From: Escherichia coli 042
Lineage (GTDB): Bacteria; Pseudomonadota; Gammaproteobacteria; Enterobacterales; Enterobacteriaceae
DNA: 64,000 nucleotides
Strand: one strand, 5' to 3'
Assembly: GCF_000027125.1 (NCBI RefSeq)
Contig: NC_017626.1
Part shown: positions 3,695 through 57,871 of the stretch, one piece after another
Layout: every line of letters begins with the position of its first letter
Numbering within the stretch: the first letter of the stretch is position 1
Notes under the pieces: model-generated
Databases searched by the model: none
Seen by the model: the letters and a program-made list of their open reading frames with translations, nothing else
What the model was told of the DNA's origin: nothing
Program-made: the position numbers and the translations under genes

Positions 3695-4032
3695 TCAGGA
3701 CATAAGCAACTGAAATTGATGGCTGGCATGACGAGGGATGCAGATGCTGATTTCATTACCCCCGGTGATTACTAAAGGAGAGGCGAAAACGACTTTATTC
3801 CCCTGGTATGTGTATCCACCAGTAGAACCCTTCGTTGCCCGAATGCTGGCAGGAACTGTTGGCAGAACGGCAACATTTTTTTTGTCGTTGACCTCACCAT
3901 GTCGATCACTATGCCTGTATCCCACCTTACTGGCTGACAACCCCACTATGCCGCTGGTCTGTAAATCCCTCATATCTCTCCTCGCGCGCAATTTAAAGAA
4001 CCGTTATTTCTCAAGAATTTTCAGGGACTAAA

Positions 4033-9419: not shown

Positions 9420-9665
9420 GACTATCCCTTATATTTCATTACTGCGATTATTTCAATTTCAGTATACTAATGAAATGATGCCAGACTGTTTCTTAGCGCA
9501 AAAACTGCCAGATTTGGTAGGACCAAAATTTATCCACAAAGTAGTTTTGCATAACAGTTAATTGATAATAAGTAAATGCAACACGAATATATTTTCGCAC
9601 AGCGTATAGCTTATGTTTATAAAAAAATGGCTGATCTTATTTCCAGTAAAAGTTATATTTAACTT

Positions 9666-9771
9666 ACTGAGAGCACAAAGTTTCCCGTGCCAACAGGGAG
9701 TGTTATAACGGTTTATTAGTCTGGAGACGGCAGACTATCCTCTTCCCGGTCCCCTATGCCGGGTTTTTTTT
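9666..9771 (+). ncRNA. gadY: Small regulatory RNA GadY, cis-antisense to the gadX 3' UTR
   Basis: Sequence actgagagcacaaagtttcccgtgccaacagggagtgttataacgg...cccggtcccctatgccgggtttttttt matches the GadY sequence as I recall it and ends in a GC hairpin plus T8 terminator on the plus strand, in the gadX-gadW intergenic region. Confidence 0.75.
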
Positions 9772-9787
9772 ATGTCTGAGTAAAACT

Positions 9788-46973: not shown

Positions 46974-47059
46974 GAACGAAAAAGGCCGCAGAGTTTCACC
47001 CCTGCGGCCTGATCCGGGCGCAAATTGCCATTACGGCAGCCTGACGCCCGCATGACACG

Positions 47060-47167
47060 TTACTTCCGCTTATTCAGCGAGTTCACGATCAGACTGGCAA
47101 GAATGCCAGCAATGACCGGAGCCGCTAAATCATGCCAGAAGGCCATGCCCAGTTCTGCGAGCGTCAT
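47060..47167 (-). CDS. ldr: Ldr-family type I toxin peptide (35 aa), copy 1
   Basis: MTLAELGMAFWHDLAAPVIAGILASLIVNSLNKRK; ATG at 47165-47167. The ORF-track 80-aa ORF is an upstream in-frame extension. Confidence 0.85.
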   Translation of the reverse strand: MTLAELGMAFWHDLAAPVIAGILASLIVNSLNKRK

Positions 47168-47215
47168 ATAGCCGCCTCTGTTGTAATGACAACGTTTCGC
47201 GGCTATTCTTGAGTT

Positions 47216-47283
47216 GTTTGGGTTCAAGATTAGCCCCCGTGATGTTGTCAGGTGCATACCTGCAACGTGCGGGGGTTTTCTCT
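47216..47283 (+). ncRNA. rdl: Rdl-family antisense RNA, copy 1
   Basis: Plus-strand element ending in the hairpin gcccccg...cgggggttttctct within the ldr leader; coordinates inferred from my recollection of RdlD. Confidence 0.55.
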
Positions 47284-47542
47284 CTCCAGCAACCAATGCC
47301 ACCAGGGATTAAGCCCCCGCAACATTGCGCCTCACCGGAACCCTTCCGGCTTGCCGCTGATTCTACGGCCATTTTTGTTCGTCGAAATCCATCACTTCTT
47401 CACTCTGTGCTGCGCATTCCGCAGAATATTATCCGCTTGCAGCCGTTGCATTTTTCTTACGAAAAAGGCCGCAGAGTTTCACCTCTGCGGCCTGGTCCGG
47501 GCGCAAATTGCCATTACGGCAGCCTGACGCCCGTCTGACACG

Positions 47543-47650
47543 TTACTTCCGCTTATTCAGCCAGTTCACGATCATGCTGGCAAGAATGCCAGCAATGACC
47601 GGAGCCGCTAAATCATGCCAGAAGGCCATGCCCAGCTCTGCGAGCGTCAT
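47543..47650 (-). CDS. ldr: Ldr-family type I toxin peptide (35 aa), copy 2
   Basis: Same frame and length as copy 1; C-terminus ...ASMIVNWLNKRK; not reported separately in the ORF track. Confidence 0.8.
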   Translation of the reverse strand: MTLAELGMAFWHDLAAPVIAGILASMIVNWLNKRK

Positions 47651-47698
47651 ATAGCCGCCAGTGTTGTAATGACAACGTTTCGCGGCTATTCTTGAGTT

Positions 47699-47766
47699 GT
47701 GTAGGTTCAAGAATGGCCCCCGTCATATTGTCAGGTGAATACCTGCAACGTGCGGGGGTTTTCTCT
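47699..47766 (+). ncRNA. rdl: Rdl-family antisense RNA, copy 2
   Basis: Repeat-unit copy of the rdl element with terminator hairpin. Confidence 0.5.
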
Positions 47767-48025
47767 CTCCAGCAACCAATGCCACCAGGGATTAAGCCCC
47801 CGCAACATTGCGCCTCACCGGAACCCTTCCGGCTTGCCGCTGATTCTACGACTGTTTTTCTGTTCCGAAATCCATCACTTCTTCACTCTGTGCTGCGCAT
47901 TCCGCAGAATATTATCCGCTTGCAGCCGTTGCATTTTTCTTACGAAAAAGGCCGCAGAGTTTTATCCCTGCGGCCTGATCCGGGCGCAAATTGCCATTAC
48001 GGCAGCCTGACGCCCGTCTGACACG

Positions 48026-48133
48026 TTACTTCTGCTTGTTCAGCCAGTTCACGATCATGCTGGCAAGAATGCCAGCAATGACCGGAGCCGCTAAATCGTG
48101 CCAGAAGGCCATGCCCAGCTCTGCGAGCGTCAT
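48026..48133 (-). CDS. ldr: Ldr-family type I toxin peptide (35 aa), copy 3
   Basis: MTLAELGMAFWHDLAAPVIAGILASMIVNWLNKQK. Confidence 0.85.
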   Translation of the reverse strand: MTLAELGMAFWHDLAAPVIAGILASMIVNWLNKQK

Positions 48134-48181
48134 ATAGCCGCCTCTGTTGTAATGACAACGTTTCGCGGCTATTCTTGAGTT

Positions 48182-48249
48182 GTGTAGGTTCAAGAATGGC
48201 CCCCGTGATGTTGTCAGGTGCATACCTGCAACGTGCGGGGGTTTTCTCT
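48182..48249 (+). ncRNA. rdl: Rdl-family antisense RNA, copy 3
   Basis: Repeat-unit copy of the rdl element with terminator hairpin. Confidence 0.5.
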
Positions 48250-48508
48250 CTCCAGCAACCAATGCCACCAGGGATTAAGCCCCCGCAACATTGCGCCTCA
48301 CCGGAACCCTTCCGGCTTGCCGCTGATTCTACGACTGTTTTTCTGTTCCGAAATCCATCACTTCTTCACTCTGTGCTGCGCATTCCGCAGAATATTATCC
48401 GCTTGCAGCCGTTGCATTTTTCTTACGAAAAAGGCCGCAGAGTTTCACCTCTGCGGCCTGGTCCGGGCGCAAATTGCCATTACGGCAGCCTGACGCCCGT
48501 CTGACACG

Positions 48509-48616
48509 TTACTTCCGCTTGTTCAGCCAGTTCACGATCATGCTGGCAAGAATGCCAGCAATGACCGGAGCCGCTAAATCATGCCAGAAGGCCATGCCCA
48601 GTTCTGCGAGCGTCAT
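48509..48616 (-). CDS. ldr: Ldr-family type I toxin peptide (35 aa), copy 4
   Basis: MTLAELGMAFWHDLAAPVIAGILASMIVNWLNKRK. Confidence 0.85.
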   Translation of the reverse strand: MTLAELGMAFWHDLAAPVIAGILASMIVNWLNKRK

Positions 48617-48664
48617 ATAGCCGCCTGAGTTGTAATGACAACGTTTCGCGGCTATTCTTGAATG

Positions 48665-48732
48665 GTCTAGATGCAAGAATGGCCCCCGTGGTGTTGTCAG
48701 GTGCATACCTGCAACGTGCGGGGGTTTTCTCT
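48665..48732 (+). ncRNA. rdl: Rdl-family antisense RNA, copy 4 (RdlD-like)
   Basis: gtctagatgcaagaatggcccccgtggtgttgtcaggtgcatacctgcaacgtgcgggggttttctct, the copy closest to the RdlD sequence as I recall it. Confidence 0.6.
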
Positions 48733-48991
48733 CTCCAGCAACCAATGCCACCAGGGATTAAGCCCCCGCAACATTGCGCCTCACCGGAACCCTTCCGGCT
48801 TGCCGCTGATTCTACGGCCATTTTTGTTCGTCGAAATCCATCACTTCTTCACTCTGTGCTGCGCATTCCGCAGAATATTATCCGCTTGCAGCCGTTGCAT
48901 TTTTCTTACGAAAAAGGCCGCAGAGTTTTATCCCTGCGGCCTGATCCGGGCGCAAATTGCCATTACGGCAGCCTGACGCCCGTCTGACACG

Positions 48992-49099
48992 TTACTTCTG
49001 CTTGTTCAGCCAGTTCACGATCATGCTGGCAAGAATGCCAGCAATGACCGGAGCCGCTAAATCGTGCCAGAAGGCCATGCCCAGCTCTGCGAGCGTCAT
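48992..49099 (-). CDS. ldr: Ldr-family type I toxin peptide (35 aa), copy 5
   Basis: MTLAELGMAFWHDLAAPVIAGILASMIVNWLNKQK. Confidence 0.85.
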   Translation of the reverse strand: MTLAELGMAFWHDLAAPVIAGILASMIVNWLNKQK

Positions 49100-49147
49100 A
49101 TAGCCGCCTCTGTTGTAATGACAACGTTTCGCGGCTATTCTTGAGTT

Positions 49148-49215
49148 GTGTAGGTTCAAGAATGGCCCCCGTGATGTTGTCAGGTGCATACCTGCAACGT
49201 GCGGGGGTTTTCTCT
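49148..49215 (+). ncRNA. rdl: Rdl-family antisense RNA, copy 5
   Basis: Repeat-unit copy of the rdl element with terminator hairpin. Confidence 0.5.
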
Positions 49216-49574
49216 CTCCAGCAACCAATGCCACCAGGGATAAAGCCCCCGCAACATTGCGCCTCACCGGAACCTTTCCGGCTTGCCGCTGATTCTACGA
49301 TTGCTTTTTACCGTCAGCACCCGGCAATCTTCCTCATTGCGCGATGCCTTCCAGCTTAATTTCTTTATTTGCAATAGTTGCAGTTCATATCCGGGCTGAC
49401 TCCAGACTGGTAGTGAAATGCGCAATTTTGTAGAATTGCGCCTCCTCGCGACCTCCCCAGTGAATCTGTTGCCTCATTTTTTACATACTGCGTATTCGAC
49501 TTCTCCACCTGTTGCGCAAGAGAAACTGGGTTTATTCATTTTTGCGAGGCCGACTTCTTTCTGGACAGGACTTT

Positions 49575-54900: not shown

Positions 54901-55072
<172 letters not shown>

Positions 55073-55108: not shown

Positions 55109-56716
55109 TTATTCGATAGAGACGTTTTCGAAGTGATGTTTGCCTAATGGATCAACCACATAGCCTTTAACTTCTTTGCGTACCGGTTCAAACACGGTGG
55201 AGTGAGCGATGATCAGTGCCGGAGCCTGATCGTGCATCACCACCTGTGCTTGCTTATACAGCTCAATACGCTTGTTGTGGTCGTCAGTAGCACGTGCCGG
55301 TTGAATCAGATCTTCAAACGGCTTGTAGCACCATTTTGAGTAGTTGGAACCTTGTTCAGAAGCAGCGCAGCTGAACAGGGTGGCGAAGAAGTTATCCGGA
55401 TCCCCGTTGTCGCCAGTCCAGCCCATCATTACCGTCTGATGCTCGCCATCTTTCGCGCGCTTGAGGTACTCACCCCATTCGTAGGTGACGATTTTGGCCT
55501 GTACGCCCACTTTCGCCCAGTCTGCCTGAATCATCTCCGCCATGCGGCGAGCGTTCGGGTTATACGGACGTTGTACCGGCATCGCCCACAGGTCGATGGA
55601 GAAACCTTTTTCCAGACCCGCTTCTTTCAGCAAGGCTTTCGCTTTTTCGGGATCGTAGGTGTAGTCCTGAACGTCGTCGTTATAGCCCCACATGGTTGGC
55701 GGGATCAGGTTTTTCGCTGCCACGCCCGCGCCCTGATAAACCGCTTTGATGATCGCGTCTTTGTTCACCGCGTAGGTCAGAGCCTGGCGAACTTTCACAT
55801 CATCGAGTGGTTTTTTCTGCACGTTATATGAAAGATAGCCGACGTTCAGCCCCGGCATTTCCATCAGGTTGATGGATTTATCCTGCTTCATGCGAGCGAT
55901 GTCTGCCGGGTTCGGGTACGGCATCACCTGGCATTCATTCTTCTGCAATTTCGCGTAACGCACGGAAGCATCAGGGGTAATAGAGAAAACCAGCGTATCG
56001 ATCTGCGGTTTGGTGCCCCAGTAGCCATCAAACGCTTTGTAGCGGATACGGGAATCTTTTTGGTACTGCTGTAACTGGAACGGACCGGTGCCGATTGGGT
56101 TGAGGTCCAGTTTTTCCGGTGTACCGGCTTTCATCATCGCGTCAGCATATTCTTTTGACAGAATAGAGGCGAAGTCCATTGCCAGATCCGCGAGGAACGG
56201 CGCTTCCGGGCGAGTCAGCACGAACTGAACGGTGTTATCGTCCACCTTTTTCACTTCGCTGATCAGCTCCGGCAAGCCCATGCCTTCGAAGTATTCGTAG
56301 CTGCCGCCAGAAACTTTATGGTACGGGTTTTGCGCGTTTTTCTGACGATCGAACGAGAACACCACGTCATCGGCGTTCAGTTCGCGCGTCGGTTTGAATT
56401 CTTTATTGTCGTGCCACTTCACACCTTTACGCAGATGGAAGGTATAGGTTTTACCGTCTTCGCTGACTTCCCACTTTTCAGCGAGGCCCGGGATCACTTC
56501 GGTGGTGCCGATTTTAAATTCAACCAGGCGGTTATAAAGCGGCACGGAAGAGGCGTCATAGGTAGTACCGGAGGTAAACAACTGCGGGTTAAACCCTTCC
56601 GGAGATCCTTCTGAGCAATAAACCAGAGTTTTAGCCTGAACACTTGCTGCGACGGTCATAGCCACCAGGCTGAGACCAAGCTTCAGCATCCCTGACTTTT
56701 TCAAGGAAATACGCAT
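55109..56716 (-). CDS. dppA: Periplasmic dipeptide-binding protein DppA
   Basis: 535-aa ORF with signal peptide (MRISLKKSGMLKLGLSLVAMTVAASVQA); first gene of dppABCDF. Confidence 0.96.
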   Translation of the reverse strand: MRISLKKSGMLKLGLSLVAMTVAASVQAKTLVYCSEGSPEGFNPQLFTSGTTYDASSVPLYNRLVEFKIGTTEVIPGLAEKWEVSEDGKTYTFHLRKGVKWHDNKEFKPTRELNADDVVFSFDRQKNAQNPYHKVSGGSYEYFEGMGLPELISEVKKVDDNTVQFVLTRPEAPFLADLAMDFASILSKEYADAMMKAGTPEKLDLNPIGTGPFQLQQYQKDSRIRYKAFDGYWGTKPQIDTLVFSITPDASVRYAKLQKNECQVMPYPNPADIARMKQDKSINLMEMPGLNVGYLSYNVQKKPLDDVKVRQALTYAVNKDAIIKAVYQGAGVAAKNLIPPTMWGYNDDVQDYTYDPEKAKALLKEAGLEKGFSIDLWAMPVQRPYNPNARRMAEMIQADWAKVGVQAKIVTYEWGEYLKRAKDGEHQTVMMGWTGDNGDPDNFFATLFSCAASEQGSNYSKWCYKPFEDLIQPARATDDHNKRIELYKQAQVVMHDQAPALIIAHSTVFEPVRKEVKGYVVDPLGKHHFENVSIE

Positions 56717-56728
56717 TATTCTGCTCCA

Positions 56729-56750
56729 ATTGTGATGTTTGTTGTTTTAA
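56729..56750 (-). promoter_or_regulatory. C/A-rich element in the dppA 5' leader, probable GcvB sRNA target site
   Basis: Minus-strand aaaacaacaaacatcacaa immediately upstream of the GGAGCAG Shine-Dalgarno and the ATG; dppA is an established GcvB target through such a C/A-rich site. Confidence 0.5.
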
Positions 56751-57295
56751 CCCTTTGCAGTGGGTTGTCGCTGCCTGACCTTTTTTGTTTTTTGCCCGGT
56801 CGGGTCAACGTTATGAGGTGGGGATGCCGTACTAATTAACATCAGTGTAACAGTGCGGATCCTCCATAAAATGCCCCTCGTGACCTACAATCTGTCAACA
56901 GAATGTGAAAACGTCAATACAGCCAACCGGGATTTACACCAACGGTGAGAATCCACAAACAAAGATTAAAAAAACTTCAAACAGCTATTTGCAGCAGAGA
57001 AATTTGTGCTACTCCAACATGACCAGAACAATCAGCTTAATATTTAGCAACAATTGGTGATTAAGTTTTATGCATTTTGTGAAAAAAATCTGAGGAAAAG
57101 GTGGATATCTGAGCGATTAATACCATGAACGCTAAAACGCACAGCGGAAAATGCCAGCGCCAGCCATAAGTAACGCAAAAAAAAATTTAAGCAAATATAA
57201 AAAAAGACAATGGTTTCTGTCACAAATCCGTTAATGGATAGTGAGATATGGGCGCAAATTTGGCAGGAAAATGTGTGGTGTGTAGGTCGAATAAG

Positions 57296-57794
57296 GCGGT
57301 CGCGCCGCATCCGACAATGGGCCGGCACATTTGCCTGATGCGACGCTGGCGCGTCTTATCAGGCCTACGTCGAATCGAACCTCCCTGCCCCCGGAAGTTC
57401 TCATCCTCTTCAGGCCGCAGAAAGCAAAAAACCAGCCCGTAGGCTGGTTTTTCTAAATTGGTCGGTGATAGAGGATTACTCGCCACTTCGTGGCTCGCCC
57501 TGCGGGCCGTTGCTGGCGCAACGTTCTCTCGCTTCGCTCGAGTCGAATCTCCCTGCCCCCGGAGGTTCTCATCCTCATAGGCTACAAATGCAAAAAAGCC
57601 TGCTCGCTGAGCAGGCTTTTCGAATTTGGTCGGTGCCAGAGGATTACTCGCCACTTCGTGGCTCGCCCTGCGGGCCGTTGCTGGCGCAACGTTCTCTCGC
57701 TTCGCTCGAGTCGAACCTCCCTGCCCCCGGAGGTTCTCATCCTCATGGGCTACAAATGCAAAAAAGCCTGCTCGCTGAGCAGGCTTTTCGAATT
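57296..57794. repeat. Three tandem imperfect direct repeats (about 150-185 bp), each ending with a terminator hairpin plus a roughly 20-nt copy of the proK 3' end
   Basis: Units at about 57296-57479, 57480-57648 and 57649-57794. Each contains tcgaa(t/c)ctccctgcccccgga(a/g)gttctcatcctc, a hairpin (aaaaaaccagcccgtaggctggttttt or aaaaaagcctgctcgctgagcaggctttt) and aatttggtcggtg(at/cc)agaggatt, which matches the proK 3' terminus. Confidence 0.7.
57762..57790 (-). terminator. Rho-independent terminator of proK
   Basis: On the minus strand aaaagcctgctcagcgagcaggcttttttg, 5 nt after the tRNA 3' end. Confidence 0.65.

Positions 57795-57871
<77 letters not shown>

Follow-up and report, generated by a model that had tools for sequence, protein, structure and literature searches.

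The site at which the small RNA GcvB acts on dppA is already known and is among the best-characterised target sites of bacterial sRNAs. Work on this pair is said to include the studies of Urbanowski in 2000, Sharma in 2007 and Pulvermacher in 2008, and compensatory base-pair changes that restore regulation are part of the literature for this class of GcvB targets. In both E. coli and Salmonella, dppA is catalogued as a "Verified" target of the R1 region of GcvB (Miyakoshi et al., 2021; PMC9299463, Table 1), and the pair is recovered in thousands of RIL-seq chimeras as well as in CLASH and MAPS signal (PMC9299463). Tree et al. (2014; PMC4104026), citing Sharma et al. (2007), attribute the demonstration of a direct interaction with the R1 seed to a GcvB R1-deletion mutant and to footprinting. 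They also showed that a fusion carrying the dppA leader of O157:H7 is responsive to AgvB, an antagonist of GcvB (PMC4104026). Yang et al. (2014; PMC3879156) located the target in dppA to a 15-nt stretch close to the Shine-Dalgarno that contains four ACA motifs. In Salmonella, deletion of this 15-nt ACA segment lowered expression by 96%, and randomising the ACAs left 0.5-5% of the wild-type expression (PMC3879156). The oligonucleotides of Yang et al. give the Salmonella core as ACAACATACATCACA followed by ATTGGAGCAGAAGAATG (PMC3879156, Table S2).

The E. coli locus studied here carries the core ACAACAAACATCACA followed by ATTGGAGCAGAATAATG and shares all four ACAs with Salmonella; it differs from the Salmonella core in having an A for the T at the seventh position, which is one spacer base. 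The sequence, the R1 complementarity and the ranking of sites, the predicted accessibility, the conservation and the leader identity with published strains were computed here, and the in vivo repression, the footprint, the dependence on Hfq and the enhancer activity (Salmonella experiments) are taken from the literature.

The dppA locus

The window, by which we mean the whole 64-kb stretch of DNA that was analysed, carries on its minus strand, in this order, eptB, proK, two full RtT-family repeats, a REP element, an AT-rich spacer and dppA. Of the 5426 complete E. coli genomes, 4872 match at least 80% of the 1.55 kb around the element. Strain MEW is 99.9% identical over this 1.55-kb dppA region, and its annotation names the dppA product as the periplasmic binding protein of a dipeptide ABC transporter. 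The gene is the orthologue of a validated GcvB target and, like typical targets, which belong to amino-acid or peptide transport or metabolism, it is a peptide-transport gene. The features in and next to the gene are the following.

55109..56716, minus strand: dppA coding sequence, 535 aa (open reading frame and annotation in matching E. coli genomes, MEW; b3544 in K-12)
56714..56716, minus strand: dppA start codon ATG (sequence, open reading frame and MEW annotation)
56724..56727, minus strand: Shine-Dalgarno GGAG, 7 nt before the ATG
56730..56748, minus strand: C/A-rich element AAAACAACAAACATCACAA, that is AAAACAACAAACAUCACAA, at -32..-14 relative to the A of the AUG
56726..56747, minus strand: predicted duplex with GcvB nt 62-83 (R1), covering dppA -31..-10 (accessibility-aware prediction)
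56769..56810, minus strand: leader hairpin with the A-rich loop CAAAAAACAAAAAAGG at 56797..56781 (MFE fold)
56689..56707, minus strand: small early-coding hairpin UCCUUGA/UCAGGGA at +10..+28, dppA codons 4-10

A C/A-rich element lies just upstream of the dppA Shine-Dalgarno

Read on the minus strand, the region before the gene runs GGGTT, AAAACAACAAACATCACAA, TT, GGAG, CAGAATA, ATG. The first-pass annotation had put a C/A-rich run directly before GGAGCAG-ATG; the run and the order of the parts are as it described, but the adjacency is looser, with TT standing before GGAG and AATA between GGAGCAG and the ATG. Eighteen of the 19 bases of the element are A or C, and four ACA motifs are packed inside 15 nt (56745..56731, -29..-15), 3 nt from GGAG.

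A 19-mer of this type (at least 18/19 A or C and at least four ACAs) is unique in the 64-kb window when both strands are considered. The density of ACAs, taken alone, does not exceed what chance would give: fifteen-mers with at least four ACAs occur at two loci in the window, and a Markov-1 simulation produces on average 11.7 of them for every 128 kb. The other ACA-dense stretch, CCTACACACCACACATT (57269-57286, minus strand), lies beside the REP/naRNA4 element, ~390 nt upstream of the putative dppA transcription start, with no gene start nearby, and is probably a chance occurrence.

The GcvB R1 seed is predicted to pair with the C/A-rich element

No GcvB match was found within the 64-kb window, and we took the GcvB query from K-12. 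Since gcvB is near-universal in E. coli (5425 of 5426 complete genomes) and at least 99% identical in 5389 records, the K-12 RNA can be used as the query, and judging from these genomes the source strain almost certainly carries gcvB. The pairing search combined a windowed duplex energy with the opening energies of both RNAs and covered the leader plus 60 nt of coding sequence. The best site pairs dppA -31..-10 with GcvB nt 62-83 through 20 pairs and one bulged GcvB G, and extends to the first G of the Shine-Dalgarno. A hybridisation energy of -24.6 and opening energies of 1.0 (mRNA) and 7.6 (GcvB) add up to -16.1 kcal/mol, which puts this site 8.6 kcal/mol ahead of the runner-up site (-7.5 kcal/mol) in the leader plus 60 nt. 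The interaction prediction, a check that could have gone against the first-pass annotation, thus places the best GcvB site on the C/A-rich element and none comparable elsewhere in the leader. The published GcvB site on dppA, which reportedly spans about -31 to -14, would agree with this prediction. The predicted duplex stops short of GcvB nt 84-88, a stretch that Yang et al. likewise place outside the dppA pairing (PMC3879156).

The energies themselves discriminate less well. When the leader was dinucleotide-shuffled and scored with accessibility, 2 of 133 shuffles equalled the native energy (z = -2.6), and the raw R1-leader duplex energy was equalled by 28 of 1000 shuffles. By raw R1 hybridisation energy, many unrelated places in the window score better than the dppA site, and this quantity was dropped as a measure of specificity. 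An unrestricted RNAduplex run of the whole leader against the whole GcvB was also discarded, as it returned a meaningless 280-nt duplex of -103 kcal/mol. Almost any RNA containing C, A and G can pair with a G/U-rich seed, and the shuffles retain the A/C richness of the leader. Taken alone, the computed pairing is only moderately strong, and energy-based prediction alone is weak evidence.

The element is held at a fixed position across the Enterobacterales

We retrieved 120 dppA loci from species-representative genomes with a degenerate pattern for the DppA peptide CSEGSPEGFNP and anchored them on the start codon; 115 distinct loci from the Enterobacterales underlie the conservation counts. Immediately before GGAG, an element rich in C/A and dense in ACAs is present in Escherichia, Citrobacter, Enterobacter, Klebsiella and Kluyvera, in Yersinia, Serratia and Rahnella, in Erwinia, Pantoea, Dickeya and Pectobacterium, and in Photorhabdus, Xenorhabdus, Edwardsiella, Hafnia, Proteus and others, while the remaining leader sequence diverges freely among these loci. 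In the start-codon-anchored comparison the ACA element was missing from the dppA loci of insect symbionts with reduced genomes and of Vibrionaceae.

ACA coverage over the 115 loci reaches 0.75 at -30..-21, with 0.32 at -20..-11 and 0.22 at -40..-31, and stays between 0.03 and 0.13 throughout the region upstream of -40. At least three ACAs fall within -40..-11 in 102 loci, and the best duplex with the E. coli R1 overlaps -40..-5 in 109. The Shine-Dalgarno segment TTGGAGCAGAA hardly varies among 37 Enterobacteriaceae leaders. The position-specific conservation of the ACA element is clearly non-random and provides the strongest evidence from this analysis that the C/A run is functional. It is conservation, and not pairing energy, that sets the dppA site apart from the background expected for a G/U-rich seed.

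The element is predicted to be single-stranded

We folded the putative 165-nt leader together with 30 nt of coding sequence. In the MFE structure, nucleotides 56748..56725, from the C/A run through UUGGA, are unpaired between two hairpins, and the C/A element is unpaired also in the consensus fold of 37 Enterobacteriaceae leaders. The hairpin at 56769..56810 is the sole internal helix kept in that consensus, with compensatory changes at three pairs. Its A-rich loop (56797..56781) is a candidate Hfq-binding site; binding of Hfq to the dppA 5' region has been published (PMC2515195, PMC4104026).

The promoter, the extent of the leader and the repeats after proK

The following features lie upstream of the gene.

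56717..56881, minus strand: putative dppA 5' leader, ~165 nt, its start placed from the conserved promoter and a reported mapped start
56889..56917, minus strand: putative dppA promoter, with -35 TTGACG (56917..56912), a 17-nt spacer and an extended -10 TGaCAGATT (56897..56889)
57285..57365, plus strand: REP element scored as naRNA4 (Rfam)
57370-57813, minus strand: RtT-type repeat array with a 168-nt unit, comprising two full Rfam RtT matches and a partial third unit
57762..57627 and 57592..57459, minus strand: the full RtT-family repeats (Rfam matches)
57795..57871, minus strand: proK, tRNA-Pro(CGG)

The start of E. coli dppA transcription was reportedly mapped 165 nt upstream by Abouhamad and Manson in 1994. 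For Salmonella, the dppA RNA made in vitro for the Hfq-binding work begins at -163, a position given as the transcriptional +1 (PMC2515195). Among relatives in Escherichia, Citrobacter, Kluyvera and Enterobacter, the promoter block ctgtattgacgttttcacattctgttgacagattgtagg hardly varies. A consensus promoter scan left the dppA promoter below its threshold, as its rules exclude a -10 hexamer with 3/6 matches. From the promoter sequence, we infer that dppA transcription starts near 56881; an overlapping TTGACA (56897..56892) might instead direct initiation ~20 nt further downstream. The promoter plus leader (261 nt) is found in 5422 of the 5426 complete E. coli genomes, and the copies of O157:H7 and BL21(DE3) show 100% identity to it.

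Each unit of the RtT array opens with a copy of the tRNA-Pro 3' end and closes with a terminator hairpin. Direct folding gave three terminator hairpins with a U run (-19.6, -19.6 and -18.5 kcal/mol), and none of 200 shuffles was as stable; a consensus terminator scan missed all three of these hairpins after proK and the RtT units, as its rules exclude stems that absorb the U run. The repeats (57443-57813) lie 3' (downstream) of proK and more than 540 nt upstream of the putative dppA start, from which they are separated by the three hairpins, the REP element and the conserved promoter. The distance from proK to dppA is 1078 nt here versus 910 nt in K-12, which has one RtT unit fewer; the copy number varies among strains ("RtT x2" or "RtT"), while the leader is invariant.

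The first-pass annotation had the leader extending into a repeat-rich region upstream of proK. Both parts of that claim fail: the repeats stand more than 540 nt above the putative start and behind three terminators, the REP element and the promoter, and they are 3' of proK (57871..57795), not upstream of it. A long dppA leader that continues from the proK/RtT region and holds the repeats within its 5' UTR would draw on the shared minus-strand orientation of proK, the repeats and dppA and on the lack of any gene between them. We consider it highly improbable, given the strong terminator hairpin and U run that close each repeat unit, the conserved promoter block at 56917..56889, a number of repeats that varies by strain while the leader is invariant, and the -163 start of the Salmonella transcript (PMC2515195).

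An upstream open reading frame that begins with the ATG at 56867 on the minus strand (MEDPHCYTDVN, 11 codons, stop TAG at 56834..56832) was examined as a conserved feature and set aside, the ATG being ACG, AAG or AGG in many genera. A GAGG lies 6-8 nt upstream of this ATG. Judged from the alignments, the frame at 56832-56867 is probably not a conserved leader peptide.

Other conserved features of the leader and the early coding region

About 30 nt at the 5' end of the leader (56850-56881, minus strand; GAGGGGCAUUUYAnGGAGrAUCyGC) are nearly invariant in 37 Enterobacteriaceae. RNAalifold matches leader nt 12-19 to positions +12..+19 of the coding sequence; as neither side varies, covariation lends this pairing no support. 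In 93 Enterobacterales loci the synonymous codons of the early coding hairpin are near-fixed (AGT 98%, ATT 96%, TCC 92%, TCA 81% and the rare GGG 91%), compared with 35-50% for most dppA codons from 19 to 44. The +10..+28 hairpin is paired in 77% of cells versus 34-56% with slid partners, and variants such as UCCCUGG/CCAGGA preserve the pairing. We found no description of the leader 5' end, the +10..+28 hairpin or the long-range pairing in the dppA/GcvB literature examined. That these three, the long-range pairing being itself only possible, form a second, GcvB-independent layer setting basal translation or mRNA stability is a speculative and rather unlikely proposal, and the invariant 5' end might just as well act at the DNA level, as an operator around +1.

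Elsewhere in the window

At positions 46976-49309 a 483-bp unit is repeated in tandem (4.8 copies, 95% identical), and an rdlD antitoxin RNA lies in every unit (five Rfam matches, at 47216, 47699, 48182, 48665 and 49148). By its sequence this is an expanded array of the ldr/rdl type I toxin-antitoxin kind; in K-12 the locus carries just one ldrD/rdlD copy. Matches at the Rfam gathering level were also obtained on the plus strand for GadY (9663-9776), ES205 (3812-3883) and ES036/CssrF (55009-55051), the last lying between dppA and dppB on the opposite strand to these genes.

Discussion

We are very confident that, in the E. coli dppA mRNA, this element serves both as the binding site of GcvB and as a translation-enhancer module. 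A GcvB-type target just upstream of the dppA RBS, as the first-pass annotation had proposed, is borne out by the predicted pairing, the accessibility, the conservation and the published experiments (PMC9299463, PMC4104026, PMC3879156, PMC2515195). In this mechanism, the last ~35 nt before the dppA start codon, AAAACAACAAACAUCACAA followed by UUGGAG, are predicted to be single-stranded. Earlier work has established that GcvB, which GcvA induces when amino acids or glycine are plentiful, binds at this place, aided by Hfq, and stops initiation, and that the ACA motifs stimulate initiation in the absence of GcvB. The partners would be the G/U-rich R1 of GcvB (~nt 62-83) and dppA -31..-10; their duplex would mask all four ACAs and the 5' side of the Shine-Dalgarno and so block 30S initiation, DppA synthesis would drop and fewer dipeptides would be imported. 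Repression by direct occlusion together with loss of the enhancer is proposed, as the duplex extends to the first G of GGAG and lies inside the 30S footprint.

Two other readings of the C/A run have to be weighed against this one. The run could be a translation enhancer only, with GcvB acting on dppA through another site or indirectly, and such a reading can point to the requirement of the ACA motifs for expression independently of GcvB (PMC3879156) and to the modest specificity of pairing energies for a G/U-rich seed. Against it, no other site in the leader or the early coding region comes close (-7.5 versus -16.1 kcal/mol). Published footprinting and R1-deletion evidence supports direct pairing at this site (PMC4104026, PMC9299463), and enhancer and target are known to be one and the same (PMC3879156), which leaves this reading with a very small likelihood. 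That the run is a chance low-complexity stretch of an A-rich leader, with no specific role, would fit the observations that ACA-dense 15-mers are no rarer in the window than a Markov-1 model predicts and that some dinucleotide shuffles of the leader pair equally well with R1. It is already refuted by the conservation profile, in which an ACA-dense element keeps the same position 5' of GGAG in 102 of 115 species-level loci while its flanks diverge, and deletion of the segment in Salmonella abolishes expression (PMC3879156); we regard its probability as practically negligible.

With the combined target and enhancer as the preferred reading, the locus re-identifies from raw sequence one of the founding examples of sRNA control through C/A-rich elements. 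Its use is that of a positive control, the first-pass annotation having picked out a real RNA regulatory site, and it changes nothing in what is known about the system.

The closest described systems are GcvB-dppA of E. coli K-12 and O157:H7 and of Salmonella Typhimurium, with which this locus shares the gene, the R1 region and the four-ACA core of 15 nt beside the Shine-Dalgarno. Compared with dppA of O157:H7 and BL21 the leader is identical and nothing of substance differs. Among the other C/A-rich targets of R1 (oppA, gltI, argT, livJ, livK and yifK), the dppA site is distinguished by abutting and touching the Shine-Dalgarno, the class described as "inside the RBS", whereas the GcvB sites of gltI, argT and livJ lie further upstream than that of dppA (PMC2639303). 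Finally, the element resembles the ACA/CA-rich translation enhancers, in which ACA motifs immediately 5' of the Shine-Dalgarno raise initiation (PMC3879156); it differs from plain ACA enhancers in that the presumed enhancer of this E. coli allele doubles as an sRNA target.
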